Notes under the pieces: generated by a model
Seen by the model: the letters and a program-made list of their open reading frames with translations, nothing else
What the model was told of the DNA's origin: nothing
Database searches by the model: none
Position numbers and translations under genes: made by a program
Source of the DNA: Oscillospiraceae bacterium
Lineage (GTDB): Bacteria; Bacillota; Clostridia; Oscillospirales; Oscillospiraceae
Reading direction: 5' to 3'
NCBI GenBank assembly: GCA_017448455.1
Contig: JAFSLL010000167.1
Coordinates: 2,457 to 66,456, forward strand
Length of the DNA: 64,000 bases
Part shown: piece after piece, positions 7,349 through 25,971 of the stretch
Numbering within the stretch: the stretch's first letter is position 1
Layout: each line of letters opens with the position of its first letter

Positions 7349-7365
7349 GGAAAGGAGGAGGATTG

Positions 7366-9261: not shown

Positions 9262-9264
9262 GGA
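9140..9264 (+). repeat. 125-bp direct repeat, copy 1 (3' end of the ImmA/HTH gene)
   Basis: Matches 13601-13725 with 3 mismatches (hand-aligned), offset 4461 bp. Covers the last 40 codons plus the stop. Confidence 0.95.
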
Positions 9265-9385
9265 TGAGTCACGGGGACACTAACTATTAAAAGTCAAGCC
9301 CCCTGACACACACGTGGAAAACTGGGCAAGATATGACGTTTGTTTAACACCGGGGAGCGAGAGCTCTATTGCCGCCCGTGACTCA
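9265..9385. promoter_or_regulatory. Second pair of TGAGTCACG motifs at the cargo junction
   Basis: TGAGTCACG at 9265-9273 (+) starts at the first base after the direct repeat. Its inverted partner CGTGACTCA is at 9377-9385. A degenerate copy of the palindromic element (9292-9313) lies between them. Confidence 0.4.
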
Positions 9386-9501
9386 TCCGAGCGGAGCGTA
9401 CCGGCAGCAGCCCCACTGGGAGTTGTCCCTGGTGGGATTTCTGCGTCTTTTTCGTCTCTTCTCTTCAAAAATGTTCCGACTGAAGTTAACTCATAGTTAA
9501 G

Positions 9502-9530
9502 TTGCATTTAATTCTGCCGGATAGTATAAT
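9502..9530 (+). promoter_or_regulatory. Strong sigma-70-type promoter for the Big_2 lipoprotein gene
   Basis: TTGCAT (9502-9507), a 17-nt spacer, TATAAT (9525-9530). Preceded by the palindrome TTAACT-CAT-AGTTAA (9486-9500). Confidence 0.6.
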
Positions 9531-9576
9531 GAAATTAGTGAAAAATTCACAAAAACAGAAGGAAGGAAAAAGAAAA

Positions 9577-11659: not shown

Positions 11660-11689
11660 TGTGTCAAGAGAACCGTCCCCCTGACACAG
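11660..11689. repeat. Palindromic 30-mer, copy B
   Basis: TGTGTCAAGAGAACCGTCCCCCTGACACA, one mismatch to copy A. It directly abuts the terL remnant. Confidence 0.8.
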
Positions 11690-13477: not shown

Positions 13478-13596
13478 GTGATCCGTTCCTTTCTGTATGA
13501 ATTCCCGTTTCTGAATTAAACATATCATGATTTTTATCAAAACGCAAGCGCCATTTGGACACTTTATGCGTTTTTGTATGGCGTGCGGACCCGGGC

Positions 13597-13722
13597 CGGA
13601 GGAATCCGAACGCGGCCGTGTACCTGAGCATGATCCAGTTCGCGATGCTGATGTCGGTGGAATACTGCAACGACGTGCTGGCGCAGGCGGGGCTGCCGCC
13701 GCTGCACCATGGCGCGGCGTGA
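13597..13722 (+). pseudogene. Orphan 3' fragment of the ImmA/HTH gene
   Basis: In-frame translation RRNPNAAVYLSMIQFAMLMSVEYCNDVLAQAGLPPLHHGAA* matches the C-terminus of the 7366-9261 product except for one residue. There is no start and no upstream homology beyond about 13580. Confidence 0.85.
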
Positions 13723-13725
13723 GGA
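13601..13725 (+). repeat. 125-bp direct repeat, copy 2
   Basis: See copy 1 (9140-9264). Mismatches are at the positions matching 9144, 9213 and 9250. Confidence 0.95.
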
Positions 13726-13844
13726 ATTTTTCCCCTAGTCCTGCGGGAAGGGGAAGATTTGGCGGAGAAATAAAAGAGAAACGTGCGGGAAAAAGAGAAT
13801 ATCCGGGGAAATGGGGAGGTTTTTCCCGTTTTCCGTTCTTTATT

Positions 13845-13874
13845 TCAGCAGGACTTGGGTCCTGCTGATTTTTT
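13845..13874 (+). terminator. Intrinsic terminator-like hairpin in the leader upstream of terL
   Basis: 10-bp stem TCAGCAGGAC/GTCCTGCTGA, loop TTGG, followed by T6. It lies 52 nt upstream of the terL ATG. Confidence 0.7.
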
Positions 13875-13925
13875 CTGCCCTTCTGCTATGATACGGCACG
13901 AAGAGAGACGGAGGGAGGCGGTTTC

Positions 13926-15365
13926 ATGGCGGAGGAAGGCCGGCGGCCGCCCCTGGCGACCGAGGAGGAGGCGGCGCTGTTTCTGACGGCGGTCATGCGC
14001 GGCACGCTCGCCGGCGGGCGGGAAGCGACGGTCGGGGATCGGCTGAAGGCCTGCACCACCCTGCTGCGGCTCTACGAGGAGCGCGGGCCGGGCAGTACGG
14101 CCGGCGAGCGCGAGCAGGCGCTGGCCGCGGCGGCGGAGCGCATCGGCGCGAGCATCGCCCCCGCCTTCGCCCCGGTGCTGGGCGACGTGCTGGCCCACGG
14201 CCACACGCACTACGACATCGCCGGCGGGCGCGGGAGCATGAAGAGCAGCTTTGTGTCGCTGGCGGTGGTGTACCTGCTGCTGCTCCACCCCGAGGCGCAC
14301 GCGCTGGTGCTGCGCAAGGTGGCAAACACGATGCGCGACAGCGTCTACGCGCAGTACCTGTGGGCGCTGGAGCAGCTGGGGGTGGCGGGCTTCTTCGACT
14401 GCCGGGTGAGCCCGATGGAGCTGGTCTTCCGCCCGACCGGGCAGAAGATCCTCTTCCGCGGTGCCGACGACCCGATGAAGATCAAGTCGGTCAAGGCGCC
14501 CTTCGGCAGCATCGCGGTGACGCACTTCGAGGAGAAGGACCAGTTCGCCGGAAGGGCGGAGATCCGGACCATCCTGCAGAGCACGATGCGCGGCGGGGAC
14601 CGGTTCTGGAACTTTGAGAGCTACAACCCGCCGCTCTCCCGGGACAACTGGGCGAATCAGGACTCGGCGCAGGAGCTGCCGGACCGGATGTGCCACCGCA
14701 GCACCTATCTGGACGCGCCCCGCGACTGGCTGGGCGAGCAGTTCTTCCTGGAGGCGGAACGGCTGAAGGAGACGGACGAGCGCGCCTGGCAGCACGAGTA
14801 CATGGGGCTCGCGGTCGGGACCGGCGGCAACGTCTTCGAGCACCTGGAGCTGCGGGAGATCCCAGATGAGGAAGTGCGGCGCTTCGACCGGATCTACATG
14901 GGCGTGGACTGGGGCTTTGCGATGGATCCCTTCGCGTTTATCCGGCTGCACTACGACGCGGCGCGGGAGACGATCTACCTGCTGGACGAGATCTGCGCAG
15001 TGCGCCTGTCCAACGCCGCCGCGGCCGAGCAGATCGCGGCGCGGGGCTACGGGGCCGGCGTCATCACCTGCGACAGCGCCGAGCCGAAGAGCGTGGCGGA
15101 CTTCCGCAGCTTCGGGCTGAACGCCCGGGAGGCGGTGAAGGGGCCGGGGTCGGTGGAGTACGGGATGAAGTGGCTGCAGAGCCGGACCTTTGTGATCGAC
15201 CGGCGGCGCACGCCGCAGGCGGCAAAGGAGTTCGGGAGCTATGAGTTCGAGCGCGACCGGGAGGGGAACTTCATCTCCGCCTACCCGGACCGGAACAACC
15301 ACCTGATCGACGCCACGCGCTACGCGCTCGAGCGTGTCTTCGCAAAATACCGGTCAAGAGCGTAA
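13926..15365 (+). CDS. terL: Phage terminase large subunit (PBSX-like family) with an N-terminal extension of about 90 aa
   Basis: Walker A YDIAGGRGSMKSSF at residues 96-109, then LVLRKVANTMRDSVY...ILFRGADDPMKIKS, typical of PBSX-type TerL. C-terminal nuclease region with NNHLIDATRYALE. GGAGGGAGG RBS. Confidence 0.9.
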   Translation: MAEEGRRPPLATEEEAALFLTAVMRGTLAGGREATVGDRLKACTTLLRLYEERGPGSTAGEREQALAAAAERIGASIAPAFAPVLGDVLAHGHTHYDIAGGRGSMKSSFVSLAVVYLLLLHPEAHALVLRKVANTMRDSVYAQYLWALEQLGVAGFFDCRVSPMELVFRPTGQKILFRGADDPMKIKSVKAPFGSIAVTHFEEKDQFAGRAEIRTILQSTMRGGDRFWNFESYNPPLSRDNWANQDSAQELPDRMCHRSTYLDAPRDWLGEQFFLEAERLKETDERAWQHEYMGLAVGTGGNVFEHLELREIPDEEVRRFDRIYMGVDWGFAMDPFAFIRLHYDAARETIYLLDEICAVRLSNAAAAEQIAARGYGAGVITCDSAEPKSVADFRSFGLNAREAVKGPGSVEYGMKWLQSRTFVIDRRRTPQAAKEFGSYEFERDREGNFISAYPDRNNHLIDATRYALERVFAKYRSRA

Positions 15366-15382
15366 AGGAGGGATGCGAAAGG

Positions 15383-16723
15383 ATGAATCGGAGCGATGTA
15401 TATCTCGCCCTGGCGGCCGAGGGCCTCGCAGGCGGGGAACTGCGCGAGCGCGCCGCGCGGGAGGAGGAGCGGCTGCGGCTGTGGCGCAGCTGGTACGAGG
15501 GGGATGTCCCCCGCTTCCACAGCTACCGCGTATACAACGGGCAGAAGCGCGTGCTCTGCCGCAGGGCGGGACTGGGCATGGCGAAGACCGTGTGCGAGGA
15601 CTGGGCAAACCTCCTCCTGAACGAGCGCGTGCGCATCCGCGCCGACGGGAAGCGGGAACAGCGCTTTCTGGACCGGGTGCTGGAGGACAACGGCTTCTTC
15701 CCGGCGGCCAACCGCCTGCAGGAGCGCAAGGCAGCCCTCGGCACCGCCGCCTATGTGCCGCGGGTGACCGCGGGGAAGCTGCGCATCGACTGCCTCGACG
15801 CGGAGGGGATCTTCCCGCTGAGCTGGGAGAACGAGCAGATCACGGACTGCGCCTTCGCCGCCGGCACCCGCGCGGGCGGGCGGAACCTGCTGTATGTGCA
15901 GGCGCACCGCCGGGTCGGGGGGCTGTACGAGATTGAGAACCTGCTCTTTGCCGTCACGGACACCGGGCTGGAGCGCCTGCCCCTCACGGCGGAAGCGGAC
16001 TTCGCTGCGGTGCCGGACCGGGTGCGCACGGGCAGCGCGGAGCGGAGCTTCGTCATCGACCGGCTGAACATCGTCAACAACCTCGATCCCGGCTCGCCGC
16101 TGGGGCTCTCGGTCTTCGCAAACGCGCTGGATCAGCTGCGGGGTGTGGACGTGGCCTACGACAGCTACGTCAACGAGTTCATCCTGGGCAAGAAGCGCAT
16201 CATGGTCAAGCCCGAGGCGACGAAGGACTTCGACGGGGCGCCGCTCTTCGACGCCGACGAGCTCGCCTTCTACATCCTGCCGGAGGACTCGGGCAACACG
16301 TCCATCATCCGGGAGATCGACATGACACTGCGGACCGAGGAGCACCACGCGGGCATCGAGGACATGCTGAACCTGCTGAGTATGAAGTGCGGGCTCGGCG
16401 AGCGGCGCTACCGCTTCGAGCGCGAGGGCGTGAAGACCGCGACCGAGGTGATCAGCGAACAGAGCAGCCTCTACCGCAGCGTGCACCGGCACGAGCTGCT
16501 GCTGGAGAGCGCGCTGAAGGAGCTGGGGCGGATCCTGCTGCGGATGGGCACCGCCTTCTGCGGCGAGACGCTGGATGAGAAGACCGGGATCACGGTCGAC
16601 TTTGACGACAGCATCTTCGAGGACAGCGGGAGGGACTTCGAGCGCGCCTGCAGGATGCTGGAGCTGGGGGTGCTTACGAAGGAGGAGTTCCGCCAGCGGT
16701 GGCTGGGCACGGTCGGCCGCTGA
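15383..16723 (+). CDS. Phage portal protein (SPP1 Gp6-like)
   Basis: 446 aa, immediately after terL. Pattern ...WRSWYEGDVPRFHSYRVYNG...GMAKTVCEDWANLLLNE is typical of this portal family. Confidence 0.85.
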   Translation: MNRSDVYLALAAEGLAGGELRERAAREEERLRLWRSWYEGDVPRFHSYRVYNGQKRVLCRRAGLGMAKTVCEDWANLLLNERVRIRADGKREQRFLDRVLEDNGFFPAANRLQERKAALGTAAYVPRVTAGKLRIDCLDAEGIFPLSWENEQITDCAFAAGTRAGGRNLLYVQAHRRVGGLYEIENLLFAVTDTGLERLPLTAEADFAAVPDRVRTGSAERSFVIDRLNIVNNLDPGSPLGLSVFANALDQLRGVDVAYDSYVNEFILGKKRIMVKPEATKDFDGAPLFDADELAFYILPEDSGNTSIIREIDMTLRTEEHHAGIEDMLNLLSMKCGLGERRYRFEREGVKTATEVISEQSSLYRSVHRHELLLESALKELGRILLRMGTAFCGETLDEKTGITVDFDDSIFEDSGRDFERACRMLELGVLTKEEFRQRWLGTVGR

Positions 16724-16761
16724 ACGGGAAGAGAACAGAAAAAAGAAAGGAGTACGACCGA

Positions 16762-17193
16762 ATGCAGGAAGAGAGAAGCGTCAGTCTGGCGGCGCTGGAA
16801 GAGGAGATCGCCGCCATGGAGCAGACGGTGGGGGCGCCGGCGGAGAGTCCCGCAGCGGAGAGCGCCGCGGCCCCGACGTCGGAGACCGGACCCGGGGAGG
16901 GCGAAGCCCTGCGCCGGGCGTTGGAGGAGGCCCGGGAGCGCGTCACCCGGCTGGAGCAGGAGCGCATGCTGCTCGGGCGCGGGGTGCCGGAGGAGGACCT
17001 GGACTACTATGTGTTCAAGATCGGGCAGCTGACCGGGCCGGAGAAGGACTTTGCCGCGGCGGCGAAGGAGTTTCTGCGCAGCCACGCGCCCCGCTCCGCC
17101 GCGGTCTTCAGCACCGGGGCCAGCCTCGCGGGAAGGGCCGAGCGGCCGCGGAGCGCGAGTGATGTTATGAACCGACTCATTCGAGGAATTTAA
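16762..17193 (+). CDS. Phage scaffolding protein
   Basis: Lies between the portal and capsid genes. Acidic/Ala-rich, predicted coiled coil. ATG at 16762 with AAAGGAG upstream. The track ORF begins earlier at 16699 and overlaps the portal gene. Confidence 0.65.
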   Translation: MQEERSVSLAALEEEIAAMEQTVGAPAESPAAESAAAPTSETGPGEGEALRRALEEARERVTRLEQERMLLGRGVPEEDLDYYVFKIGQLTGPEKDFAAAAKEFLRSHAPRSAAVFSTGASLAGRAERPRSASDVMNRLIRGI

Positions 17194-17214
17194 TTAACAG
17201 GAGGTATGTGAACA

Positions 17215-18159
17215 ATGGCAACCATGATTACACGACAGAATCTGGCAGGACTGATCCCCGACCCGGTGAGCCGGGAGATCTTCCAGGGCGTGGTGGAGCA
17301 GAGTGCGGTCCTGAAGGCCGGCCGGAAGCTGCCCAACATGACGGCAAAGACCCAGACCATCAACGTGCTGGACATGCTGCCGCTGGCCTACTGGGTGGAC
17401 GGGGACAACGGCTTCAAGCAGACCAGCGCCCAGGCCTGGGACAAGAAGAAGCTCTACGCCGAGGAGCTCGCCGTCATCATCCCGATCCCCGAGGCGATCC
17501 TGGATGACACCAACTACGACATCTGGGGCGAGGTCCGCCCCCGCATTGTGGAGGCGATGGGCCGCAAGATCGACCAGGCCATCCTCTTCGGTACCGGCAA
17601 GCCCTCGACCTGGCGCGACAGCATCGTGGAGACCGCCGTCCATGCCGGGGCGGTGGTAACGGAATCCAGCGATCTCTTCTCGGACATCATGGGCGTGGAC
17701 GGCGTCATCGCCAAGGCGGAGGAATCTGGCTATATGCCCACCGGCATCATGAGCGCGGTCTCCATGCGCGCCAAGCTCCGCGGCCTGACGGACCAGAACG
17801 GGCACCCGATCTTCCTCGCCAATCTCCAGGGCCACGCGAGCTACATGCTCGACGGGCTGGACATGAGCTTCCCGATGAACGGGGCCTGGGACCCGGATGA
17901 GGCCCTGATGATCGTGGGCGACTTCCACCAGTTGGTCTACTCCATCCGGCAGGACATCACCTACAAGATCCTGACCGAGGCGACCATCGTGGATCCGTCC
18001 ACCCGCGCGGTGGTCTACTCGCTGGCGCAGCAGGACATGGTGGCGCTGCGTGCGGTGATGCGCCTGGGCTGGGAGATCCCGAACCCGGTGAGCGCCTACC
18101 GCAGCAACCTGGAGGAGTACAGCCCCTTCGCCGTTTTCAAGGGCGCGCAGACCCCGTGA
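17215..18159 (+). CDS. Phage major capsid protein (HK97-family-like)
   Basis: 314 aa following the scaffold gene. C-terminal pattern ...LMIVGDFHQLVYSIRQDITYKILTEATI...MVALRAVMRLGW is typical of Phage_capsid family proteins. AGGAGG RBS. Confidence 0.85.
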   Translation: MATMITRQNLAGLIPDPVSREIFQGVVEQSAVLKAGRKLPNMTAKTQTINVLDMLPLAYWVDGDNGFKQTSAQAWDKKKLYAEELAVIIPIPEAILDDTNYDIWGEVRPRIVEAMGRKIDQAILFGTGKPSTWRDSIVETAVHAGAVVTESSDLFSDIMGVDGVIAKAEESGYMPTGIMSAVSMRAKLRGLTDQNGHPIFLANLQGHASYMLDGLDMSFPMNGAWDPDEALMIVGDFHQLVYSIRQDITYKILTEATIVDPSTRAVVYSLAQQDMVALRAVMRLGWEIPNPVSAYRSNLEEYSPFAVFKGAQTP

Positions 18160-18171
18160 TCGGCTGAGAAG

Positions 18172-18558
18172 ATGTCGTACGCAAAATTTGAAGACTATAC
18201 CGGCCGCTTCGGCGGCCGGGCGATCCGGACGGAAGAGGACTTTGACCGGCTGGCGCTGCGGGCGGGCCTTGTGCTCGACCGTCTGACCGCCGGGAAAGCG
18301 GCGCGCTACCGCGACACGGAGGGGAAGCTGGCCCTCGCCTGCTGCGCCTTGGCGGAGAAACTGGCCGCGCTGGAGGAGCAGGCGGCGGTGGCCGGCAGCG
18401 GGGCGCTGAAGGCGGAGGCCGTCGGGGACTGGCGGGCGGAATACCGCCGGGTGAGCCTGCGGGAGAGCGGCGCGGAGCTGGCCGCGCTGGCGGAGATGTA
18501 CCTCTTCGGCACGGGCCTGCTGTATCGGGGTGTAATGTGTACTGTCCACATGTGGTGA
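18172..18558 (+). CDS. Phage head-tail connector protein (gp6-like, tentative)
   Basis: 128-aa ORF directly after the capsid gene. Assigned by position and size; weak family recognition. Confidence 0.5.
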   Translation: MSYAKFEDYTGRFGGRAIRTEEDFDRLALRAGLVLDRLTAGKAARYRDTEGKLALACCALAEKLAALEEQAAVAGSGALKAEAVGDWRAEYRRVSLRESGAELAALAEMYLFGTGLLYRGVMCTVHMW

Positions 18559-18989
18559 GCCTGGTCACTGAGCGGGAGGGGGTGCCGTACCTCACGGTCC
18601 TCAGCGGCGTGATGCTGCAGGGCCGGGACGGGCGCGCCTCGCTCAGCCGCGGCGATGAGGAGGAAGCCCGCCTCACGCTGTACATCCCCTTCACGGTGGA
18701 CGCGCGGACGCCGGCGGGGGGAGCCTCGCTCTACCTCCCGCCGCGGGAATGGCTGGGGGCGGAGGACCGCGCGGACTACTGGACCCTGATCCCGGAGGGC
18801 GAGGGCGGCGGGCGCTGCAGCTTCTTCGCGGAGGGGCTGCTCCCGGCGCCCTGCACGCTGGCGGAGGCGCGGCGGAACCGGGAGAATGTCTGGACGGTGG
18901 CCGCGGTCTCGCGCAAGGACTACGGCAGCCCCGCCCTGCGCCACTGGGAGGTCACCACCCGCGTGGCCCACTACTGGAAGAACGGATAG
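18537..18989 (+). CDS. Phage head-tail joining protein (hypothetical)
   Basis: Co-directional ORF with a GTG start. An alternative GTG at 18555 overlaps the upstream stop as GTGA. No family recognised. Confidence 0.45.
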   Translation: MYCPHVVSLVTEREGVPYLTVLSGVMLQGRDGRASLSRGDEEEARLTLYIPFTVDARTPAGGASLYLPPREWLGAEDRADYWTLIPEGEGGGRCSFFAEGLLPAPCTLAEARRNRENVWTVAAVSRKDYGSPALRHWEVTTRVAHYWKNG

Positions 18990-18998
18990 GAGGCGCGC

Positions 18999-19358
18999 AT
19001 GACCCAGCGTGAGATTCTGGACTGGCTGAACCGCTCGCCGGTACTGGGCGGGAGCGGCGTTCACGCGGACTTCCTGCCGAGCTATGAGGGCTGGTCGTTT
19101 ACGGCGGCGGGGCGGAGCACGAGGGACATCCTCGGCAAAGTCCGGACGGAGACCGAGCTGCGCCTTTACCGCCGCGGCACGGCCGTGACGGATGAGGACC
19201 GGCTCCGGCTGCTCGAGGAGCTCGCGGCGCTGGCGGACTGGGCGGTAGCCAACCCGCCGGCGGGAGCGCGGGTGCGCCTGAGCGCCCTGCCGAAGTTCAG
19301 CGGACGCAGCCCCAGCGGCGTGGAGGACATGCACGCGGTGCTGCGGATTATGGAATAG
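18999..19358 (+). CDS. Phage head-tail or tail-completion protein (hypothetical)
   Basis: 119-aa ORF with GGAGG upstream. Positioned between the connector genes and the tail tube gene. Confidence 0.45.
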   Translation: MTQREILDWLNRSPVLGGSGVHADFLPSYEGWSFTAAGRSTRDILGKVRTETELRLYRRGTAVTDEDRLRLLEELAALADWAVANPPAGARVRLSALPKFSGRSPSGVEDMHAVLRIME

Positions 19359-19390
19359 AAATATAAGAATATGGAGGTTGTGAGGACATT

Positions 19391-19915
19391 ATGCCAGATA
19401 TTACATTCAACACGGCGGCGGGGCGGACCATCGCCCGCGAGCTGCTCATCGCCTATCTGAACACCGGGACGGCCGCCGCCCCGGTCTGGAGCCCCATCGG
19501 CCGCCGGGTCGAGGAGAGCTCCACCGAACTGGACTGGGAGTCCGAAACCCTGCGCGACATCCTGGGCGCCACCTACGGCACGCTGAAGAAGCCGAAGATC
19601 ACCCAGACCTTTGAGCCCTGCGACCTCGACGGCGGGGACGCGGGCCTGCTGAAGCTCTGGAACCTGGCGGTGAAGGAGCAGGACGCACAGGCGCTGGCGG
19701 CGCAGGACATGCTGATCGTGCACTTCTACGCCGGGGAGAGCGCCTCGCCCTTCGCCGAGCGCTACGCTTCCTGCATGGTTGAGGTCACGGGCCTCGGCGG
19801 TGAGGGCGGCGGCAACATCGGCATGCCCCTGACCATCACCTACGGCGGCACCCGGACCACGGGCACCGCGACGAAGGACGCGGGAGGCGTGATCAGCTTC
19901 ACGGCAGACACATGA
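19391..19915 (+). CDS. Phage major tail (tube) protein
   Basis: 174 aa, positioned before the chaperone pair and tape measure gene. N-terminal ...ELLIAYLNTGTAAAPVWSPIG resembles siphophage tube proteins. Confidence 0.6.
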   Translation: MPDITFNTAAGRTIARELLIAYLNTGTAAAPVWSPIGRRVEESSTELDWESETLRDILGATYGTLKKPKITQTFEPCDLDGGDAGLLKLWNLAVKEQDAQALAAQDMLIVHFYAGESASPFAERYASCMVEVTGLGGEGGGNIGMPLTITYGGTRTTGTATKDAGGVISFTADT

Positions 19916-20331
19916 GGGAGCTGAAGCTGGACCTGGGCGTGGAGGAGTATGCGCTCTGCGGCCGGGTGACGGTGGCCTTCAACCCGACGGACCTCGGCTT
20001 CCTCGAGAAGCTGACGGAGGTCTACGGGCGGATGGACGCCCTGCAGGAGCGCGTGAACAAAGCGCGGGAGGAGCTGACGGAGGAGAAGGACATTTTCCCC
20101 TTCGCAAGGGACATTGACCGCGAGATGCGCGAGGCGCTGGACGGCCTCTTCGGGAAGGCGGTCTGCGAGCCCCTCTTCGGGAGCATGAACCTCTATGCCT
20201 CCGCCGGGGGCTTCCCGGTCTGGGCAAACCTGCTGCTGGCGGTGACGGAGGAATGCGAGAGCGCGATGAAGGGCGAGCTCAAAAAGCGCGACGAGCGCAT
20301 CGCGAAGTACACGAAAAAGTATTCCGGATGA
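19912..20331 (+). CDS. Phage tail assembly chaperone (gpG-like, tentative)
   Basis: 139-aa acidic protein between the tube and tape measure genes. The -1 frame is open across its last 79 nt into the next ORF. Confidence 0.5.
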   Translation: MRELKLDLGVEEYALCGRVTVAFNPTDLGFLEKLTEVYGRMDALQERVNKAREELTEEKDIFPFARDIDREMREALDGLFGKAVCEPLFGSMNLYASAGGFPVWANLLLAVTEECESAMKGELKKRDERIAKYTKKYSG

Positions 20332-20873
20332 ACACTTTTACCCTCCCCTATTCTGTGAACATAGATGGGCAGGAATACGCGGTGCGGACGGACTACCGCG
20401 TGATCCTGGAGATCCTGATCATGCTGCGGGACCCGGACCTGACGGACGGGGACAAAGAAGAGGCGCTGCTGCGCATGTTCTACCGCGACCGGCCGCCGGA
20501 CCGGAAGAAGGCGGTGAAGGCCTGTCTGGACTTCATCGACCCGAAGCCCGCATCGCGTCCCGGGCCGGAACTGGTAGACTGGGAGTACGACTTCGACCTG
20601 CTGGCGGGACCGGTGAACCGGAATCTGGGCTTTGAGTGCCGGGAGGCGAAGGAGCTGCACTGGCGCACCTTCGTGGGGGCCTTTCTGGAGATCGGGCCGG
20701 AGAGCCTCTTCTCCCGGGTCCTGCGCGTGCGGCACAAGCTGAAAACCGGCAGGAAGCTGGAAAAGCATGAGCGCCAGCTGCTGAACCACAGCCGCGAGCT
20801 CGTCGTGGTCCCCAGCCGCTACAGTGAAGAGGAACAGGAGATTTTAAACGCATGGCAATCACCAAGAATCTGA
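20328..20873 (+). CDS. Bacteriophage Gp15-family protein (tail assembly, gpT-like position)
   Basis: MNTFTLPYSVNIDGQEYAVRTDYRVILEILIMLRDPDL matches the Gp15 family N-terminal pattern. ATGA overlap with the upstream stop. Confidence 0.55.
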   Translation: MNTFTLPYSVNIDGQEYAVRTDYRVILEILIMLRDPDLTDGDKEEALLRMFYRDRPPDRKKAVKACLDFIDPKPASRPGPELVDWEYDFDLLAGPVNRNLGFECREAKELHWRTFVGAFLEIGPESLFSRVLRVRHKLKTGRKLEKHERQLLNHSRELVVVPSRYSEEEQEILNAWQSPRI

Positions 20874-22189
20874 GTTTCATGATCGACCCGGATGCGGAGG
20901 AGGAATACTGGGAGACCGCGGAGGCGCTGAAGGAGCTGGCGAAGCGGTACCGGGAGACGGCGGCCGCCGTGAAGAACGCGACCAAGCAGCTGCTGAAATT
21001 CGATGAGATCAACCGGCTGACCGCCCCGGCGGAAGAAAAAACCTCCTCCGGCAGGTCGAGCTCCGGCAGCAGCTCTTCGAAGAAGAGCAGTACGGCGGGA
21101 ACCACTGCGAAAACAGCGGACGAACAGCCGCAGACCGTGCGGCAGAAGGACACAGGCGGGGCAAAGGAATGGAACCTGCCGCTGCAGCTGGCCTTCAACG
21201 ATGTGCTCTTCAACTGGAAGGACCTCAACTGGGAGAGCATCATGATGAAGCTGGTGGCGGGCCTCGGGATGCTCGCCGGCGGCATGGTGGGTTTCATCCT
21301 CGGCGGACCCACCGGCATGGTGATCGGCATGACGCTGGGGCTGAGCTTCGGCCTGGTGGCAGACTCCATGATCTTCAACTTTGACGGGGAGCTGAGCAAA
21401 GAGGAACTGCTCAAGTCCATCCTGGCCGTGATCCCCGCCTTCGCCGGGGCGGCGATCGGGCTCTTTTTCGGCGGGCCGATCGGGGCCGCCATCGGCCTCA
21501 CGCTCGGCATGATCCTGAGCTTTACGCTGCTGGGCCTCAACTGGGACGAGATTAAGACCGGGCTTAAGCTCTTCGGCCAGGACCTGATCACCAACTTCGA
21601 CCTGCACTGGGGCAACCTCGTCCGCTTCGCCGCGGACAGCTGGAACCGGCTGAAGCAGTGGTGGGGCGGTCTGAAGCTCGGCCTCTTCGACATCAGGCTC
21701 CCGCACCTGCAGGTGCAGTGGGAGGAGCTGGCGGCCAACTCCATCATCACCCGCGTCTTCGGCATCTCGGCCATTCCGCACCTGAGTGTCAGCTGGTACG
21801 CGCGGGGCGGCGTGGTGGACGGCGCCACCATCATCGGGGTCGGGGAACAGGGCGCGGAGGCCATCGTGCCGCTGGAGCGCAACACCGAGTGGATCCGTCG
21901 CGTGGCGCTGGAGCTGAAAGCGCAGCTGGAGGCCCTGGCGCCGGAGAGCGCGCTGCGGCTCTATCCCCTGCCGGCCGCGGCGACCGGCGCGCTGATCCCG
22001 CCCGCGGCGCTGCAGCCGAACCCGGCGGCGGATCTGGAGAGCATGGCCCGCACGATCGCCGAGGCCATCGCCGGGATCGCTCCCCAGCAGCGCGAGGACC
22101 CGGAAATCCGCCTCTACCTCGACGGAAAGCAGATCAGCGATGTCGTCACGCGGTACCAGAGGCGGGGCAACCGTGCGTTAGGAGGCTGA
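20852..22189 (+). CDS. Phage tail tape measure protein (short, 445 aa)
   Basis: Position, an N-terminal coiled coil, central Gly-rich hydrophobic segments (GGMVGFILGGPTGMVIGMTLGL...), and a C-terminal region. Confidence 0.75.
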   Translation: MAITKNLSFMIDPDAEEEYWETAEALKELAKRYRETAAAVKNATKQLLKFDEINRLTAPAEEKTSSGRSSSGSSSSKKSSTAGTTAKTADEQPQTVRQKDTGGAKEWNLPLQLAFNDVLFNWKDLNWESIMMKLVAGLGMLAGGMVGFILGGPTGMVIGMTLGLSFGLVADSMIFNFDGELSKEELLKSILAVIPAFAGAAIGLFFGGPIGAAIGLTLGMILSFTLLGLNWDEIKTGLKLFGQDLITNFDLHWGNLVRFAADSWNRLKQWWGGLKLGLFDIRLPHLQVQWEELAANSIITRVFGISAIPHLSVSWYARGGVVDGATIIGVGEQGAEAIVPLERNTEWIRRVALELKAQLEALAPESALRLYPLPAAATGALIPPAALQPNPAADLESMARTIAEAIAGIAPQQREDPEIRLYLDGKQISDVVTRYQRRGNRALGG

Positions 22190-22193
22190 GGAG

Positions 22194-22565
22194 TTGGCAA
22201 CATTTCGTTTTACCGTCAATAATATTGACCTGCTGCCGTATATCGCCGAGGACGGGATCCGCTGGACCCGCTTCGATGTGGAGGCGCCGGACACCGGCCG
22301 CACGCTGGACGGCAAAATGCATCGCGGCCGGGTCGCCATCAAGACACGGCTGGACATCAGCTGCCGGCCGCTGACGACCGGCGAGGCCATGACCGTCCTG
22401 CGGGCGATTGAACCGGAGTTCGTCACCGTGCGCTACTCCGACCCGGTGGACGGCACCGCCACCAAGACAATGTACTCCAATAACATCCCGGTCACCTGCT
22501 CGGCTGTCTTTGAAAACGGTCAAGCCCTGTGGACAGGGCTGACATTTCCACTCATCGAGCGGTGA
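22194..22565 (+). CDS. Phage distal tail component (hypothetical, small)
   Basis: 123-aa ORF immediately after the tape measure gene. TTG start with GGAGG/GAGGAG upstream. Confidence 0.45.
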   Translation: MATFRFTVNNIDLLPYIAEDGIRWTRFDVEAPDTGRTLDGKMHRGRVAIKTRLDISCRPLTTGEAMTVLRAIEPEFVTVRYSDPVDGTATKTMYSNNIPVTCSAVFENGQALWTGLTFPLIER

Positions 22566-22577
22566 GGAGAATAACTC

Positions 22578-24224
22578 ATGCAGAATACATCAACATTATA
22601 TCAGTCCATCTTCGCTTCCAACTACTGGTGCGAGGTGAAGGTGGACATCGCCGGGACGGAGTACGGCATGGACACCCTGACGAAGCTCCGCACGGCACGG
22701 GCCCCCTTCGGCACCGGGACCCCGGCCCTGGGTAAGGCTGTGGCCGGCGAGCTGGAGCTCTCGGTCTACGCGAGCTCCGCCGCCATCCCCCGCATGGCCG
22801 TCATCCGCCCGTATATCCGCATCCGGGACCTGAGCCGGGTCAGCGAGTGGCTGCCCAAGGGAGTCTACTACATCGACACCCGCGAGACCGACGACAACGG
22901 CCTGCTTACCATCCGGGCCTATGACGCGATGCTCAAGGCCGAGCGCAGCCAGCCCTGGTCCGAGCTGAGCTGGCCGGCGACGGACATCGACGCGGTGAGC
23001 GAGATCGCCACCATCCTGGGCGTGGCGCTGGACAGCCGCACCGCGGCTCTGATGACCGCCGGCTTCCAGATCCCCATGCCGGCGCAGTACACCATGCGGG
23101 AGACGCTGGCGCAGATCGCGGCGCTCTACGGCGGGAGCTTCGTCATGACGGACGAGGGGAAGCTCCGCCTCGTCTGCCTCTGGGACACGCACGGCACCGC
23201 GGATTCCACCGTGGGCGGCGGGATGTGGAAGCTATCCCTCGCCCCCGCCTTCCCCGCCGTGACAGGAATCACCTTCTTGACGGACAGCGAGACAGAAGTG
23301 AGTGCCGGGACAGGCAGCGGCTACGTCTTCGAGATCCCCTGCCCCTGGGCGACGCAGGCCGCGGCGGACTGGCTGCTGCAGCAGATGCAGGGCTTTTGCT
23401 ACCTCCCCTTCACGGCGCAGGGCGCGGTGCTGGACCCGGCCGTGGAGCCCGGCGACACGCTGAGCCTGCGGGAGAGCCTGCGCACGACCTGGTCGGAGGA
23501 GCTGGACTTCGGCGCGCTCTACACGGCGGACATCGAGGCCCCGGCGGATGAGGAGCTGGACCACGAGTACCCCTATGAGAGCACACAGGAGCGCAACTAT
23601 GTGCGCCGGATGAAGAACATGGAGAGCCAGCTCACCCTGCAGGCACAGGCGATCTCCGCCAAGGTGAGCCGCGTGGGCGGCAGCGCGAGCAGCTTCGGCT
23701 GGTACCTGGACGCGGACCGCTTCAGCCTGATGAGCAACAACCTGGAAGTGATGCGCGTGGACAGTGCGGGCCTCACGGTGCAGGGCACGGTGAACGCGAC
23801 CGCCGGCGAGATCGGCGGCTGCCAGATCGTGAACGGGGTGCTGACCGTCTCCAATGCGAACATCGACAACATCAACGCGAGCAAGATCACGGCCGGCACG
23901 CTGAATGTGGGGCGCATCGCCTCCAAAAGCCTGACGGGGGCGAAGATCGCGGACGAGACCCTCGCGAGCGGCAAACTCGCGGACGGGGCAGCGGTGAACC
24001 GGGTGATCAGCAACAGCGCGGTGAGCTATGCCAAGACCAGCTTCCAGGGGACGCTGGACCAGGTTGGGACGAACAAGGCCAACATCGACACGATCTTCGG
24101 CTACTTCACGGGGAGTGCGAACTTCAGCTCGCTGAGCGCGGCGAACTTCTGGCTCAACGGCTACCGCCTCAACGCGGGAACCAGCACCCCGTATGGAAAT
24201 CTTGTGACATGGAGCAACAGCTAA
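22578..24224 (+). CDS. Phage tail tip / host-recognition protein
   Basis: 548 aa. C-terminal ...AGEIGGCQIVNGVLTVSNANIDNINASKITAGTLNVGRI is typical of siphophage tail fibre or minor structural proteins. GAGGAG RBS. Confidence 0.65.
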   Translation: MQNTSTLYQSIFASNYWCEVKVDIAGTEYGMDTLTKLRTARAPFGTGTPALGKAVAGELELSVYASSAAIPRMAVIRPYIRIRDLSRVSEWLPKGVYYIDTRETDDNGLLTIRAYDAMLKAERSQPWSELSWPATDIDAVSEIATILGVALDSRTAALMTAGFQIPMPAQYTMRETLAQIAALYGGSFVMTDEGKLRLVCLWDTHGTADSTVGGGMWKLSLAPAFPAVTGITFLTDSETEVSAGTGSGYVFEIPCPWATQAAADWLLQQMQGFCYLPFTAQGAVLDPAVEPGDTLSLRESLRTTWSEELDFGALYTADIEAPADEELDHEYPYESTQERNYVRRMKNMESQLTLQAQAISAKVSRVGGSASSFGWYLDADRFSLMSNNLEVMRVDSAGLTVQGTVNATAGEIGGCQIVNGVLTVSNANIDNINASKITAGTLNVGRIASKSLTGAKIADETLASGKLADGAAVNRVISNSAVSYAKTSFQGTLDQVGTNKANIDTIFGYFTGSANFSSLSAANFWLNGYRLNAGTSTPYGNLVTWSNS

Positions 24225-24241
24225 CAGAAAGGGAATTTACA

Positions 24242-24502
24242 ATGATTAGACTATTGACGAATGCGGGAGAGAGTTTCCCGCTGGAATGGATCGGGATCAG
24301 CGACTTTGACGGCAGCCTGCGCTTTGAGGTAACAGGCGGCGAGGTGGCAAAGCTGTTCCAGGTCTTCACCGATCCGAAGCACACGCAGGTGCTGACGAGG
24401 ATCTTCGACGAGACCGAGAAGACCTACGAAGGCTATACCTTCTTCAAGGGCATGGACTGGCTGCCATCAGGAAACGTAGTAGTCCGACTGTTAAAGGGGT
24501 GA
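24242..24502 (+). CDS. Hypothetical phage protein
   Basis: ORF 24209..24502. I prefer the ATG at 24242 (GAAAGGGA 8 nt upstream). No family recognised. Confidence 0.4.
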   Translation: MIRLLTNAGESFPLEWIGISDFDGSLRFEVTGGEVAKLFQVFTDPKHTQVLTRIFDETEKTYEGYTFFKGMDWLPSGNVVVRLLKG

Positions 24503-24633
24503 TGAGTTTGGATGTGTCAAAGTGCTATTACGCGCTGAAGTCGGGCGGACTTACCGAAGAAGCTGTTGCGACGGCGCAATACTGCGAAGCAGATACAAAT
24601 AACTTGCGCCTAGTCCACGAAGTGGAGGCGTGA
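24502..24633 (+). pseudogene. 43-codon ORF duplicating the 5' end of the lysin gene
   Basis: MSLDVSKCYYALKSGGLTEEAV... Positions 24508-24567 align with 24634-24693 (50 of 60 nt, including a 32-nt identical core). The stop at 24631-24633 is immediately followed, in frame, by the lysin ATG. Confidence 0.45.
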
Positions 24634-25473
24634 ATGGACGTTAATAAATGCTACTACGCACTGAAGTCGGGCGGACTTACCGAAGAAGCTGTATGGTCTA
24701 TCCTCGGGAACCTGAACTGCGAAAGCAATCTGGAGCCCTGCCGGCTGCAGGGCGACTTCCAGAACGGCTACCCGGCCAGCCACACCTACGCAGAGATGGT
24801 GGACAGCGGCATCAGGTCGAAGGAGAGCTTCGCCACCGATGCCAAAGGCTGGGGCCTGGCCCAGTGGACCTACCCGAGCCGGAAGCGGGCGCTCTGGGAC
24901 TACGCGAAGGCGAAGAACCGCTCGATCGCGGATCTGGAGCTGCAGCTGGCCTTCCTGCTGAAGGAACTGAAGGAGGATTTTTCTTCTCTGTACCGGTTCC
25001 TGCAGACAACGAACAACATGTATGAGGCGACGGACCGCTTCTGCCGGGAGTTTGAGAATCCGGCGGTGAAGAACGTGAGCGCACGGTACAGCTCCGCCAA
25101 GTGGCTGCGGGCCAATGTGGATGTTTCAAATCCGTTCCTCGATCAAGAGCCCAGCGCAGCGGGTCTTGATCGAAAAAGGACGAGCAGTGAAGTGAGCGAG
25201 CTTTCCTGTGAAACAGGGAAGCGAGACGATACGGAACTTGCTCGGACGCAGTGGCCGCCGCGCATGATCTGCGTCGGGATGAAGGGGCTGGATGTGACGC
25301 TGCTGCAGGTGCTGCTGACCCTGCGCGGCTACAGCTGCGCGGTTACGGGAGAGTTCACCAAGGAGACGGACAAGAAGCTCCGACAGTTTCAGGCAGATTC
25401 TGACGACCTGATGATCGACGGAGTATGTGGGCCGCTGAGCTGGGGTGAATTGCTGAAATACCAGGAGGGATAA
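24634..25473 (+). CDS. Phage endolysin: phage-tail-lysozyme-like domain plus C-terminal peptidoglycan-binding domain
   Basis: N-terminal ...ILGNLNCESNLEPCRLQGDF...GWGLAQWTYPSRKRALWDYAK. C-terminal PG_binding_1-like GLDVTLLQVLLTLRGYSCAVTGEFTKETDKKLRQFQ...DGVCGPLSW. Confidence 0.8.
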   Translation: MDVNKCYYALKSGGLTEEAVWSILGNLNCESNLEPCRLQGDFQNGYPASHTYAEMVDSGIRSKESFATDAKGWGLAQWTYPSRKRALWDYAKAKNRSIADLELQLAFLLKELKEDFSSLYRFLQTTNNMYEATDRFCREFENPAVKNVSARYSSAKWLRANVDVSNPFLDQEPSAAGLDRKRTSSEVSELSCETGKRDDTELARTQWPPRMICVGMKGLDVTLLQVLLTLRGYSCAVTGEFTKETDKKLRQFQADSDDLMIDGVCGPLSWGELLKYQEG

Positions 25474-25475
25474 AA

Positions 25476-25718
25476 ATGAGAGATTGGATGATTCGGAGTT
25501 TGAAGACCTTTGTGCAGGCGTTTTTCGGGGTGCTGATCCCGGAGCTGGGTGTGATCCTGAATCAGGGATTCCCGGAGTCGTGGAGCGTGCTGTGGGCGCT
25601 GCTGGCTCCGGTGATCGCGGCGGCACTGAGCGCGGCCATCTGCGCGGCGTGGAACATTATCCTGGAGCAGCTGCAGGAGGAGGCTCCTTACGCGGGGAGG
25701 CATGTGAAGAATGAGTGA
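25476..25718 (+). CDS. Holin-like small membrane protein
   Basis: 80 aa with two hydrophobic segments and a charged C-terminus, directly after the lysin gene. Confidence 0.55.
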   Translation: MRDWMIRSLKTFVQAFFGVLIPELGVILNQGFPESWSVLWALLAPVIAAALSAAICAAWNIILEQLQEEAPYAGRHVKNE

Positions 25719-25971
25719 TGTGGTACAGGCCGCGCTCATCGGCGCGGCGGCGAGCATCATCGTGAATCTGATCGCCGCCGTCGGGAAGAGCAAAAAGCGC
25801 GCCGTGGACGACGCGGTGAAGGAGGAGCGGCTGGAAAACCGGCTCTGCGGCATCGAGCGGAAGCTGGACCTCCACAACGCCTACGCGGAGAAGTTCGCCT
25901 GCATCACGATCGACATCGCGGTCATCAAGAACGCCCTGCAGAACCTGAAGGAGAAGCAGGGCGGCGCTTAG
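25711..25971 (+). CDS. Small membrane-anchored coiled-coil protein (lysis accessory, hypothetical)
   Basis: 86 aa with one N-terminal TM segment (AALIGAAASIIVNLIAAV) and a charged helical tail. Overlaps the upstream gene by 8 nt. Confidence 0.45.
   Translation: MSDVVQAALIGAAASIIVNLIAAVGKSKKRAVDDAVKEERLENRLCGIERKLDLHNAYAEKFACITIDIAVIKNALQNLKEKQGGA

Follow-up and report, generated by a model that had tools for sequence, protein, structure and literature searches.

Intact phage genes for head, tail and lysis form a 12-kb block at positions 13926-25971 of the window (the whole 64,000-nt stretch that was analysed), on the chromosome of a ruminant-gut Oscillospiraceae bacterium. The block consists of 17 intact co-directional ORFs and one 43-aa fragment, is 99% coding and has intergenic gaps of -22 to +38 nt. 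The island is flanked upstream by an operon of sugar ABC transporter, kinase and DeoR genes and downstream by U32 peptidase, phosphoglucomutase, APH, CBM9 and amidohydrolase genes. Features of the block and its upstream region were as follows.

7366-9261, +, candidate phage-family regulator, 631 aa (phrog_4031, 5.8e-55; HTH_3, 1e-6, at residues 530-573)
9136-9264, +, left copy of a 129-nt direct repeat, at the regulator 3' end (family D2; 97% identity to right copy)
9502-11553, +, inserted gene, Big_2-repeat lipoprotein-like surface protein (Big_2, 1.5e-78)
11804-13540, -, inserted gene, repeat-rich secreted/surface protein (21/24-nt periodic repeats; lower-GC region)
13597-13725, +, right copy of the 129-nt repeat, marking the original regulator/TerL junction
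13845-13875, +, terminator-like hairpin and T-run, 57 nt before the TerL start
13926-15365, +, TerL, large terminase (Terminase_3, 1e-36, and Terminase_3C; 'PBSX' family)
15383-16723, +, portal, SPP1 gp6-like (SPP1_portal; phrog_533, 9e-98)
16762-17193, +, scaffolding protein, 143 aa (by position; 48-66% identity to the ORF between portal and capsid in relatives)
17215-18159, +, HK97-fold major capsid protein (Phage_capsid, 2e-33; solved capsid 8eci, 5.7e-73)
18172-18558, +, head-tail adaptor (phrog_541, 1.9e-20)
18555-18989, +, connector-size protein (phrog_3366, 2e-11)
18999-19358, +, candidate connector or tail-completion protein (phrog_3266, weak, 0.0076; conserved in relatives)
19391-19915, +, tail tube protein, by position (phrog_3099, 3e-26; ~80% identity; dN/dS 0.03-0.3)
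19912-20331, +, protein in tail assembly chaperone position (phrog_11299)
20328-20873, +, Gp15-family protein in second chaperone position (Phage_Gp15, 2.7e-17)
20852-22189, +, short tape measure, 445 aa (C-terminus matches tape measure phrogs; phrog_1535, 4.5e-16)
22194-22565, +, protein in distal-tail (Dit) position (DUF6711)
22578-24224, +, tail-tip protein in Tal position (phrog_6616, 4.5e-27)
24242-24502, +, 86-aa protein, invariably after the tail-tip gene
24502-24633, +, 43-aa ORF, partial duplicate of the lysin 5' end (73-nt repeat D8)
24634-25473, +, endolysin (Phage_lysozyme2, 2e-26, and PG_binding_1)
25476-25718, +, holin-like membrane protein (phrog_443, weak; hydrophobic segments; 92% identity to the L151 protein)
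25711-25971, +, small protein with N-terminal membrane anchor, candidate lysis accessory (strongly hydrophobic segment)

The 17 co-directional intact packaging, head, tail and lysis ORFs listed in an earlier note on this DNA were confirmed in position, and profile searches gave the expected family matches. Window ORFs with a homologue in relatives were aligned nearly end to end, so none is visibly broken. Two gene calls were corrected: the scaffold gene is 16762-17193, the overlapping frame 16575-17162 being rejected, and for the Gp15-like gene a frameshift-type overlap is unneeded with a start at 20328 and an ATGA overlap. In relatives, inserted genes part the Gp15-family gene from the preceding one. 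The window scaffold belongs to the same blast family as the scaffold-position ORFs of loci L025 and L034-L036; it matches only 28 residues of the Phage_scaffold ORF of L024, which is a separate family. The 43-aa ORF is additional to the earlier list and is a recombination scar; such scars are present at two window junctions. The tail-tip protein has a fibre-like C-terminal part, with tail-fibre phrogs matching residues 395-508.

Family profile searches of all ORFs of at least 60 aa between 7.0 and 26 kb gave no match to integrase, recombinase or replication families, as the note had claimed for the island, nor were any found in its ten nearest flanking genes. No contractile sheath or baseplate family was matched among the island ORFs, and the tail genes are of siphovirus type, not PBSX type; the label 'PBSX-like' thus holds for the terminase family and fails for the tail. 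TerL has a conserved N-terminal extension of ~65 aa with no detectable TerS likeness, and no recognisable sequence-specific small subunit accompanies it.

The statement that the island has no cI/Cro-type switch was contradicted by the phrog_4031 protein at 7366-9261, which carries a C-terminal Cro/C1-type HTH, an HExxH metallopeptidase motif (H252-E-C-x-H256, invariant across 29 homologues) and a weak SprT-like match. Its homologues in relatives adjoin TerL or are parted from it only by inserted genes: directly 5' of TerL in L020, and 5' with two or three genes between in L146 and L042. In one genome the distance is 23 kb, and in L147 the homologue opens the early region of a prophage. In the window the two genes are parted by a 4.46-kb insertion bordered by the 129-nt repeats; GC3 of its Big_2 gene is 0.73, against 0.89-0.94 in core genes. 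Hairpins analogous to that at 13845-13875 were found 5' of TerL in L015, L125, L016 and L020, and the operon promoter presumably lies 3' of this element.

At least ten related 'mini-clusters' were found in contigs of ruminant Oscillospiraceae, with host genes on their flanks or a short regulator/toxin-antitoxin block adjoining the cluster. Host metabolic or surface genes adjoin the cluster or this block in L001, L015, L016, L020, L021, L022, L024, L146 and L153, and in part only in L115. The mini-cluster contexts examined showed neither an integrase nor attachment-type repeats at the flanks, and no recombinase family was found among scanned ORFs at three downstream ends (window, L115 and L153); the L134 contig ends 223 nt after the last lysis-position ORF, its downstream flank lying beyond the contig. 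L002, which has no TerL in the 9.4 kb of contig 5' of its capsid gene, is the sole mini-cluster in which a replication helper may be present, by a weak match to DnaC/IstB-like ATPases. The finding that the note named as refuting, the same genes within a full prophage in related strains, was not made: the 10-11 contigs with an identical capsid or U32 protein all have the window's arrangement, although at 99.97-100% identity they constitute weak population evidence. More distant mini-clusters are likewise integrase-free.

In many mini-clusters intact structural genes are interrupted by unrelated ones, nearly all of which run on the opposite strand and which mostly vary from locus to locus (DUF218, PNP_UDP_1, GNAT, His_Phos_1, PrsW, VanZ, TAT-signal flavoprotein, BaxI_1, HicAB, PIN, MNT-type nucleotidyltransferase and bacteriocin-like peptides). 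In L153 the tail gene order is permuted with every gene intact. The interleaved genes, this permutation and a core-gene GC3 of 0.89-0.94, set against 0.84-0.92 in host flanks, look like signs of long residence. Most loci have different chromosomal surroundings, so that one ancestral site of insertion cannot be claimed, and the conserved position to be looked for according to the earlier note was found in one sub-lineage only (L015, L021, L022, L125/L127 and L134), where signal-peptidase-like and sortase-like genes are conserved upstream. The sortase-like neighbour has dS of 0.09-0.9, similar to cluster genes (0.14-0.64), and the signal-peptidase-like neighbour is more diverged (0.81-1.54). L133 looks degraded, with only tube, one chaperone and Gp15. 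In the MAG RGIG3788 a pair of clusters, L001 and L005, differ in TerL/portal type; their joint presence could be a binning artefact.

Selection was analysed by the Nei-Gojobori method for TerL, portal, capsid, tube, chaperone, Gp15, tape measure and Dit genes. Across these eight genes dN/dS was mostly 0.03-0.3 at dS of 0.25-0.8, and ~0.4-0.67 in the most diverged pairs only, where dS nears saturation. Low values also held between loci with different inserts (L022, L134 and L128: tape measure 0.10, tube 0.04-0.09). The mini-cluster structural genes are under purifying selection, a point that the earlier note had proposed to check across related genomes. The tape measure has 433-464 aa in all seven clusters measured (window, L002, L022, L115, L128, L134 and L153), against 732-1108 aa in phage-like relatives, and these clusters have no gp7-like minor head gene; the halved tape measure and the missing gene are derived features common to mini-clusters.

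In the capsid tree, mini-clusters are interleaved with loci of phage-like type (L033; L002 falls together with L034 and L035). Identities are mosaic between modules (capsid ~80%, portal 42-74%), and the tail-tip/lysis module of the window shows 69-92% identity to its counterpart in another element, whose capsid is of lambda-gpE type, so exchange with phages is ongoing. The genomes of isolated phages whose capsid protein is related measure 34-39 kb, and the 12-kb cluster is about one third of such a headful. The best-matching solved capsid entries contain seven chains of capsid sequence each, and with a capsid that has stayed T=7 the particles would far exceed classical small-headed gene transfer agents (GTAs) in size.

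The closest isolated phage is Acutalibacter phage Fontainebleau (ON453893), with a 55% identical capsid protein and the same packaging, head, tail and lysis gene order. Unlike the window cluster, it is a complete 39.2-kb temperate phage with an integrase-like region, DNA polymerase, helicases, a separate small terminase, a gp7-like minor head protein and an 890-aa tape measure, and its structural module is without opposite-strand genes.

RcGTA-type GTAs of Alphaproteobacteria are compact co-directional packaging, head and tail clusters of ~12-15 kb without integrase or replication genes and under purifying selection. The window cluster shares these features and the HK97-fold capsid, but is of independent origin. 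Its capsid profile matched the RcGTA capsid at only 5e-4, against 5.7e-73 for actinophage capsids; it also has lysis genes in the cluster and a scaffold gene, and no prohead protease was found. VSH-1 of Brachyspira hyodysenteriae, from a different phylum, is a chromosomal head, tail and lysis cluster that has host-gene flanks and neither replication nor integration genes; the likeness is one of gene layout. PBSX of Bacillus subtilis has a tail of contractile type and a small terminase of its own, and its locus is about twice the size of the window cluster. It shares with the window cluster a Gram-positive host, a Terminase_3-family large terminase and a nearby Xre-type HTH regulator, and differs in its sheath/baseplate families, which have no match in the island. 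The host DNA pieces that PBSX packages are shorter than its own gene set; they are 13.4-kb fragments (PMC12946183).

FpGTA of Faecalibacterium prausnitzii comprises packaging, head and lysis genes on the chromosome of a host from the same bacterial order and kind of habitat, and it resembles the window cluster in gene content and habitat. Host DNA is packaged in its particles in lengths of about 8.5-9 kb (Borodovich et al. 2026, PMC12946183), the small subunit of its terminase is unusual or without a DNA-binding domain, and it is near-ubiquitous in the host genus (PMC12946183). It is podovirus-like and encoded by two operons of 10.5 and 5.5 kb, ~125 kb apart (PMC12946183), whereas the window cluster is a single operon of siphovirus type, including tube, tape measure, Dit and Tal. 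In Ruminococcaceae, Oscillospiraceae and Christensenellaceae, host fragments of 4.6-8.9 kb are reported to be packaged in GTA fashion, the responsible gene cluster being pinned down in Faecalibacterium only (PMC12946183; bioRxiv 10.64898/2026.07.08.737213).

Since the relatives show that selection keeps the cluster, the block is probably a bacterial particle-making device of GTA-like kind rather than a virus or a dead remnant. We consider it somewhat likely that a phage-derived cluster has here turned into a lasting chromosomal trait of one ruminant-gut Oscillospiraceae lineage, kept by selection and GTA-like in function. The observations behind this are gene content, intactness, the lack of an integrase or replication module, purifying selection, derived features and tolerated foreign genes and rearrangements, from which we infer expression, particle formation, packaged content and DNA delivery to recipients. 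The domesticated, non-replicating particle locus of the earlier note is upheld in so far as more distant mini-clusters are integrase-free, lie among host genes and are under purifying selection, and is abandoned as to a switch-free locus and as to PBSX likeness beyond the terminase family. A signal would act via host factors or via the HTH/HExxH regulator that lies upstream, and the 17-gene operon would be transcribed from a promoter just 3' of the hairpin at 13845. Proheads would be built from portal, scaffold and capsid protein and filled by the Terminase_3-type TerL by headful with any DNA at hand; as the element cannot replicate, this would be overwhelmingly host chromosome. From gene content, connectors, tube, chaperones, short tape measure and Dit/Tal would add a short non-contractile tail, and holin-like proteins and lysin would release the particles. 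Active-phage genes would also display purifying selection, and the flank differences, the two clusters in RGIG3788, the degraded look of L133 and L002, the capsid-tree interleaving, the mosaic modules with continuing phage exchange and the T=7 size likewise count against a GTA-like function.

Several of these points would suit a defective or satellite-like element that is still selfish. Such a stripped phage would move via related complete phages or by recombination with them, and its genes would serve its spread, not the host. Flanks vary between most loci, one MAG has two clusters, modules are mosaic with phage-like L025, L033-L036, L041 and L151, the regulator family also occurs at a prophage early-region start, and cluster contig fragments are listed in a viral contig collection. 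We nevertheless regard this as unlikely: mini-cluster contexts show neither integrase nor attachment-type flanking repeats and a possible replication helper in L002 only, opposite-strand host-type genes and the 23-kb regulator/TerL spacing fit a packaged unit poorly, one sub-lineage has conserved neighbours with divergence comparable to cluster genes, and tail genes are present, in contrast to capsid-forming satellites.

A killer particle, PBSX-like in function, whose tail adsorption kills competing strains and whose packaged DNA is an undelivered by-product, is a question that the FpGTA authors pose for their own particle (PMC12946183). The PBSX-family (Terminase_3) terminase, the exchange of the tail-tip/lysis module between same-habitat elements, as expected of specificity determinants, and the bacteriocin-like peptide genes inside the cluster of one relative agree with it. 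It is rather improbable here, since the siphovirus-type tail is without contractile sheath or baseplate, and selection on terminase, portal, scaffold and capsid is as strong as on tail genes, which is unexpected if the tail alone mattered. In the non-contractile tailocins known so far, the head genes have been lost.

Partial clusters (L133, perhaps L002) and the scars at two window junctions would fit an inert prophage remnant with its early region deleted and the cluster not decayed yet, but this is very improbable given 17 of 17 ORFs intact at 99% coding density, dN/dS mostly of 0.03-0.3 with dS up to 0.8 over many loci, structural genes intact despite turnover of different foreign genes around them, and a capsid protein with thousands of close relatives in metagenomes.

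The cluster at 13926-25971 consists of 17 co-directional ORFs and one 43-aa fragment, with intergenic gaps of -22 to +38 nt and a coding density of 99%, in a window of about 62% G+C. Its genes, most of them identified by Pfam and PHROG searches, are as follows.

Genes of the window cluster, in map order
13926-15365, large terminase (TerL), Terminase_3 family (PF04466, 1e-36; PF17288, 3e-15)
portal, SPP1-type
16762-17193, scaffold
17215-18159, capsid protein, HK97-type
head-tail adaptor and two more connector-size proteins
19391-19915, tube-position protein, very conserved
chaperone-position protein, then Gp15-family protein
tape measure, 445 aa
Dit-position protein, DUF6711
tail-tip protein, 548 aa, C-terminal part fibre-like
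lysin, Phage_lysozyme2 and PG_binding_1
two small proteins with strongly hydrophobic segments

GC3 in the core genes is 0.89-0.94, resembling the host flanks, and the ten closest flanking genes are of ordinary host types. From the DeoR gene to the U32 peptidase gene, no ORF matched an integrase, recombinase or replication family, and neither tRNA genes nor Rfam matches were found anywhere in the 64-kb window, so that it holds no tRNA-type attachment site. The particle-gene cluster described in the earlier note was thus borne out in its ORF positions, in its Pfam and PHROG matches and in its freedom from integration and replication families.

Relatives of the capsid protein number in the thousands in metagenomes, and the top 120 clusters are 76-85% identical. 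About 150 related loci (designated by L and a number) were recovered, through look-ups of exact proteins and from collections of genomes, viruses and metagenomes. Nearly all close relatives came from ruminant gut samples, and those in named genomes were labelled Oscillospiraceae or Ruminococcaceae. One set of loci is phage-like (L025, L033-L036, L041, L137, L139 and the 39.2-kb Acutalibacter phage Fontainebleau, ON453893). These have nearly all genes on one strand, a separate or fused protein resembling the small terminase (TerS), a gp7-like minor head protein and a tape measure of 732-1108 aa; Fontainebleau also carries an integrase-like region, a DNA polymerase and helicases. The other set comprises mini-clusters (the window, L001, L015, L016, L020, L021, L022, L024, L115, L125/L127, L128, L134, L146 and L153), in which the gp7-like gene is absent, the tape measure spans 433-464 aa in each of the seven loci that show one (L002 among them), and the flanks are host genes or an adjoining short block of regulator or toxin-antitoxin genes. 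About ten related mini-cluster loci showed no integrase in their surroundings, and the sole possible replication helper among related loci was a weak DnaC/IstB-like match in L002. Locus L133 is a fragment, and L002 lacks TerL in the sequence recovered.

Flanking genes of three mini-clusters
L001, upstream of TerL: sugar kinase, aldolase, alcohol dehydrogenase and PLP enzyme, then an ImmA-like peptidase and HTH pair and a 109-aa HTH protein
L022, upstream of TerL: NAD synthase, GH3 glycosidase and dCMP deaminase, then two small genes
L153: AAA-type ATPase gene upstream; Mrr nuclease, Ser/Thr kinase and DegV genes downstream

Pairwise Nei-Gojobori estimates gave dN/dS mostly of 0.03-0.3 at dS 0.25-0.8 for every structural gene family, rising to about 0.4-0.67 solely among the most divergent pairs, whose dS is near saturation. 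Window ORFs with homologues in relatives aligned over nearly their full length. The structural genes are thus intact and under purifying selection, as is required of GTA genes. In many relatives, unrelated genes lie between intact structural genes, 19 on the opposite strand versus about 1-3 on the same strand by database gene calls. A simple GC3-based gene caller sometimes picked antisense ORFs in high-GC loci (e.g. L134), and the counts of inserted genes therefore rest on database gene calls and Pfam-supported ORFs.

Genes inserted between structural genes of related loci
L020, last connector/tube junction: DUF218, purine nucleoside phosphorylase, acetyltransferase
L021, last connector/tube junction: histidine phosphatase
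L022, four junctions: PrsW, VanZ, TAT-signal flavoprotein, small ORFs
L002: toxin-antitoxin genes of three kinds (HicAB, a PIN/DUF2281 pair, an MNT-type nucleotidyltransferase), several double-glycine-leader peptides
other loci: BaxI_1, SHOCT and DUF3592 proteins

Most inserted genes are unique to their locus. Three mini-clusters (L022, L134 and L128) carry different inserts at the same junctions; dS between them is 0.3-0.5 in the tape measure and tube genes, and dN/dS is 0.10 for the tape measure and 0.04-0.09 for the tube, so that the inserts have been replaced over time under continued selection on the particle genes. The tail genes of L153 (9468-14817) are permuted relative to all other loci and all intact, in the order Gp15, tail tip, small protein, 433-aa tape measure, Dit, holin and CHAP lysin. 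Such inserts and such an order would not easily be tolerated by a phage that needs a head-sized, timed genome, and would be by a chromosomal cluster. We know of no GTA description in which opposite-strand foreign genes lie at almost every junction with the particle genes intact.

Among the L002 inserts, at least four small ORFs lie within the cluster on the minus strand.

Small ORFs within the L002 cluster
10465-10656 (-)
12837-13064 (-)
13145-13390 (-), with a more divergent leader (...LTDDELDQVSGG) and no cysteine
13457-13675 (-)

The remaining three of these combine MxNKxxKxxLNDELLDKVSGG double-glycine leaders with Cys-containing cores and are bacteriocin/RiPP precursor-like.

The earlier note had found no cI/Cro-type switch in the island, having missed a protein upstream of TerL with a Cro/C1-type HTH. 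This regulator (7366-9261, 631 aa) has the HTH close to its C-terminus, an HExxH motif that is invariant among 29 homologues, and a match to phrog_4031, a phage protein family of unknown function (6e-55). Its AlphaFold model is decent (pLDDT 79.7); whole-chain Foldseek against the PDB gave nothing below E=0.9, and a PDB sequence search gave no match. With these searches empty, assignment as a putative peptidase draws on the invariant HExxH, a weak SprT-like match and, in one homologue, a faint Peptidase_M78 record. A homologue in L147 stands at the start or edge of a prophage early region beside a LexA-like HTH/S24 repressor, which places the regulator in a phage switch region; the same homologue also adjoins a CBASS-like pair (CD-NTase and Cap15) and an ISL3 transposase, the whole group lying at 6015-9692.

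The 3' end of the regulator gene is part of a 129-nt direct duplication enclosing a 4.46-kb block of lower G+C, which encodes a Big_2 surface lipoprotein and an opposite-strand, repeat-rich surface protein.

Features between the regulator and TerL genes
9136-9264, first copy of the 129-nt duplication, at the regulator 3' end
11804-13540 (-), 578-aa secreted protein with 21/24-nt periodic Asn/Gly/Thr-rich repeats followed by a Pro-Glu repeat linker
13597-13725, second copy, about 200 nt before TerL

The secreted protein has a weak PARP-repeat match as its sole family assignment, and similar surface-protein genes occupy the same junction in L144. Because the repeat flanks the inserted block, the ancestral order was regulator, terminator hairpin, TerL, an arrangement that is present in L020. 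Elsewhere this junction holds three small ORFs on the same strand, ending with a candidate activator that resembles sigma-70 region 4 (L042), or two unrelated opposite-strand genes (L146), or is stretched to 23 kb by giant surface-protein genes (the L144/L153 genome). In L020 a direct duplication of about 240 nt of the tube gene 5' end (14389-14625 and 15939-16176) surrounds a 1.55-kb block. Long direct duplications around inserted blocks in the window and L020 suggest insertion by single-crossover or unequal homologous recombination and not by a transposase.

Chromosomal position was compared in 10-11 contigs with an identical capsid or U32 protein. The arrangement was the same throughout; these contigs are 99.97-100% identical, with too little variation for a population-level selection test, and their shared arrangement therefore says little about the population. 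An exact look-up of the U32 protein returned cluster-carrying contigs only and no empty site. The flanks differ in the window, L001, L020, L024, L115, L146 and L153. A sub-lineage (L015, L021, L022, L125/L127 and L134) has genes for a membrane signal-peptidase-like protein (S26/S24, 207 aa) and a sortase-like protein (275-306 aa) upstream of the cluster, of which L127 and L125 show the sortase-like gene only; no homologue of either was found in the window.

Upstream signal-peptidase-like and sortase-like genes
L015, 2895-6168
L021, 1708-3215
L022, 5277-6491
L134, 2748-4220
L127, 3166-4071 (sortase-like gene only)

The sortase-like gene has dS of 0.09-0.9, similar to the cluster genes (0.14-0.64), and the signal-peptidase-like gene is more diverged (0.81-1.54). 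These values fit co-inheritance of the sub-lineage's upstream neighbours with the cluster; the two genes may be host neighbours or part of the element.

Modules have been exchanged. Capsid and tube are about 80% identical throughout, and the portal occurs in two types (42-49% and 68-74%); one metagenome-assembled genome holds two clusters with different TerL and portal types. In a neighbour-joining tree of capsids some phage-like loci are interleaved with mini-clusters; since the tree lacks support values and recombination is evident, it was not taken to prove that they arose once. In the window, the tail-tip and lysis module shares 69-92% identity with its counterpart in L151, an element whose capsid is of the lambda-gpE type. 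The lysin 5' end is duplicated over 73 nt (24494-24566 and 24620-24692); the duplicate marks the junction of this module and creates the 43-aa ORF at 24502-24633; the lysis cassette after this ORF is 76-92% identical to that of L151, whose sample also yielded the window's species (L150). These similarities point to a recent swap of the lysis module in the window. From the mosaic modules, the interleaved capsid tree and the L151-like module it follows that exchange with co-resident phages continues, and a single ancient domestication of the mini-clusters is plausible but not proven. In L002, capsid (9389-10327) and tube (13763-14521) have GC3 of 0.87 and 0.74 versus 0.4-0.7 in their neighbours, which could reflect recent replacement of these genes or a metagenome assembly that joined different sources at conserved sequence into a chimera. 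In many of the family's contigs, too, the sequence breaks off within the capsid or tube gene.

TerL is preceded, 57 nt away, by a terminator-like hairpin with similar counterparts in relatives, so that the operon should have its own promoter downstream of the hairpin. Control by the SOS response was rejected, as a search for Firmicutes-type LexA boxes gave matches at chance level and none near promoters. No recognisable TerS was found in the window, and no ORF lies between the end of the repeat copy at 13725 and the start of TerL at 13926 that could serve as a separate one. TerL itself has a conserved N-terminal extension of 65 aa with an invariant GDRLKAC. In phage-like relatives its position is taken by a genuine TerS (L041) or by a phrog_2412 protein, separate in L036 and fused in L025 and L115. 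As a truncated TerS the extension was rejected: it had no family match even at E<=1 and no PDB match, and hhalign probabilities were 1.3% with the TerS-like extension that the other TerL type carries and 0.3% with the TerS of Fontainebleau. MAFFT placed it against the C-terminal half of the former. A TerS role for the extension is therefore not supported. Isolated related phages have genomes of 34-39 kb, versus 12 kb for the cluster, and with a head of unchanged size one headful would be roughly three cluster lengths; the solved capsid entries that match best contain 7 chains of the matching sequence. Since the cluster cannot amplify itself, the DNA packaged would be mainly that of the host.

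In function, the nearest analogues of the cluster are GTAs and PBSX. As in GTAs, chromosomal particle genes occur without replication, excision or integration functions of their own. GTA particles package host DNA that is essentially random, in pieces shorter than the gene set, and pass it to recipient cells; for the window cluster, the lack of a recognisable TerS and its 12 kb beside related phage genomes of 34-39 kb would favour host DNA as the cargo. The earlier note had proposed a GTA-like or PBSX-like domesticated locus, a reading that is supported in part. Domestication of the mini-clusters and their maintenance by selection are well supported by the comparative evidence, and a GTA-like function of the window cluster is a reasoned inference and probable. 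Likeness to PBSX held for the large terminase, which is of the PBSX family (Terminase_3), and failed elsewhere: PBSX has a contractile tail, whereas no sheath or baseplate family was matched in the window, whose tube, Gp15, tape measure, DUF6711 and tail-tip genes form a siphovirus-type layout, and PBSX-like prophages have a TerS gene next to TerL, which the cluster lacks. A siphovirus of the Fontainebleau/L025 type would have contiguous integrase, replication, TerS and gp7-like genes and a long tape measure on one strand, unlike the window cluster. The Faecalibacterium GTA (FpGTA) is set apart by its description as podovirus-like and encoded in two operons, the window having a single operon with tube and tape measure. 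Capsid chains of RcGTA (6tb9, 6tba) matched the window capsid profile at 5e-4 only, compared with 5.7e-73 for actinophage capsids, and the cluster would accordingly seem, on the capsid, to be no close RcGTA homologue. Satellites of the cf-PICI type have an integrase and a replication module and no tail genes, the reverse of the window cluster.

GTA-like packaging of host DNA was recently reported to be prominent in gut Ruminococcaceae and Oscillospiraceae; only in Faecalibacterium is the gene cluster behind it known, and that one is podovirus-like, while clusters in Oscillospiraceae were sought and not found (PMC12946183; bioRxiv 10.64898/2026.07.08.737213). The mini-cluster family is a concrete candidate for GTA-type packaging in Oscillospiraceae, and its members can be recognised by capsid and tube proteins conserved at about 80% across thousands of metagenome variants, by the 433-464-aa tape measure and by the lack of a gp7-like gene. 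A far-reaching joint reading, which we regard as improbable, would make the mini-clusters an independently domesticated siphovirus-type GTA family, widespread in ruminant-gut Oscillospiraceae and the missing genetic basis of the family's GTA-type packaging. Accessory genes (toxin-antitoxins, surface proteins, bacteriocin-like peptides and membrane proteins) would be exchanged at the junctions between mini-cluster genes, and, with the conserved capsid and tube genes as homology arms, the agent would shuffle its own embedded accessory genes between species. If particles are made and carry host DNA, they would provide a major route for gene flow in the rumen and a clear natural example of a temperate phage reduced to a host-owned device.

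Two kinds of short repeat were observed in non-coding DNA of the window.

Short repeats in non-coding DNA
7119-7147 and 11660-11688, 29-nt palindrome TGTGTCAAGAGAACCGTCCCCTTGACACA in intergenic DNA, one copy with one mismatch
7239-7262, tandem GAGTCACGTGG repeats, just 3' of the TGTATAAT box that precedes the regulator gene
9266-9276, GAGTCACGTGG copy with one mismatch, directly after the regulator stop codon

The GAGTCACGTGG repeats are operator-like in appearance, the three matches being not clearly above chance (reached in 14 of 100 shuffles). The palindrome may be a REP-like repeat or a terminator.
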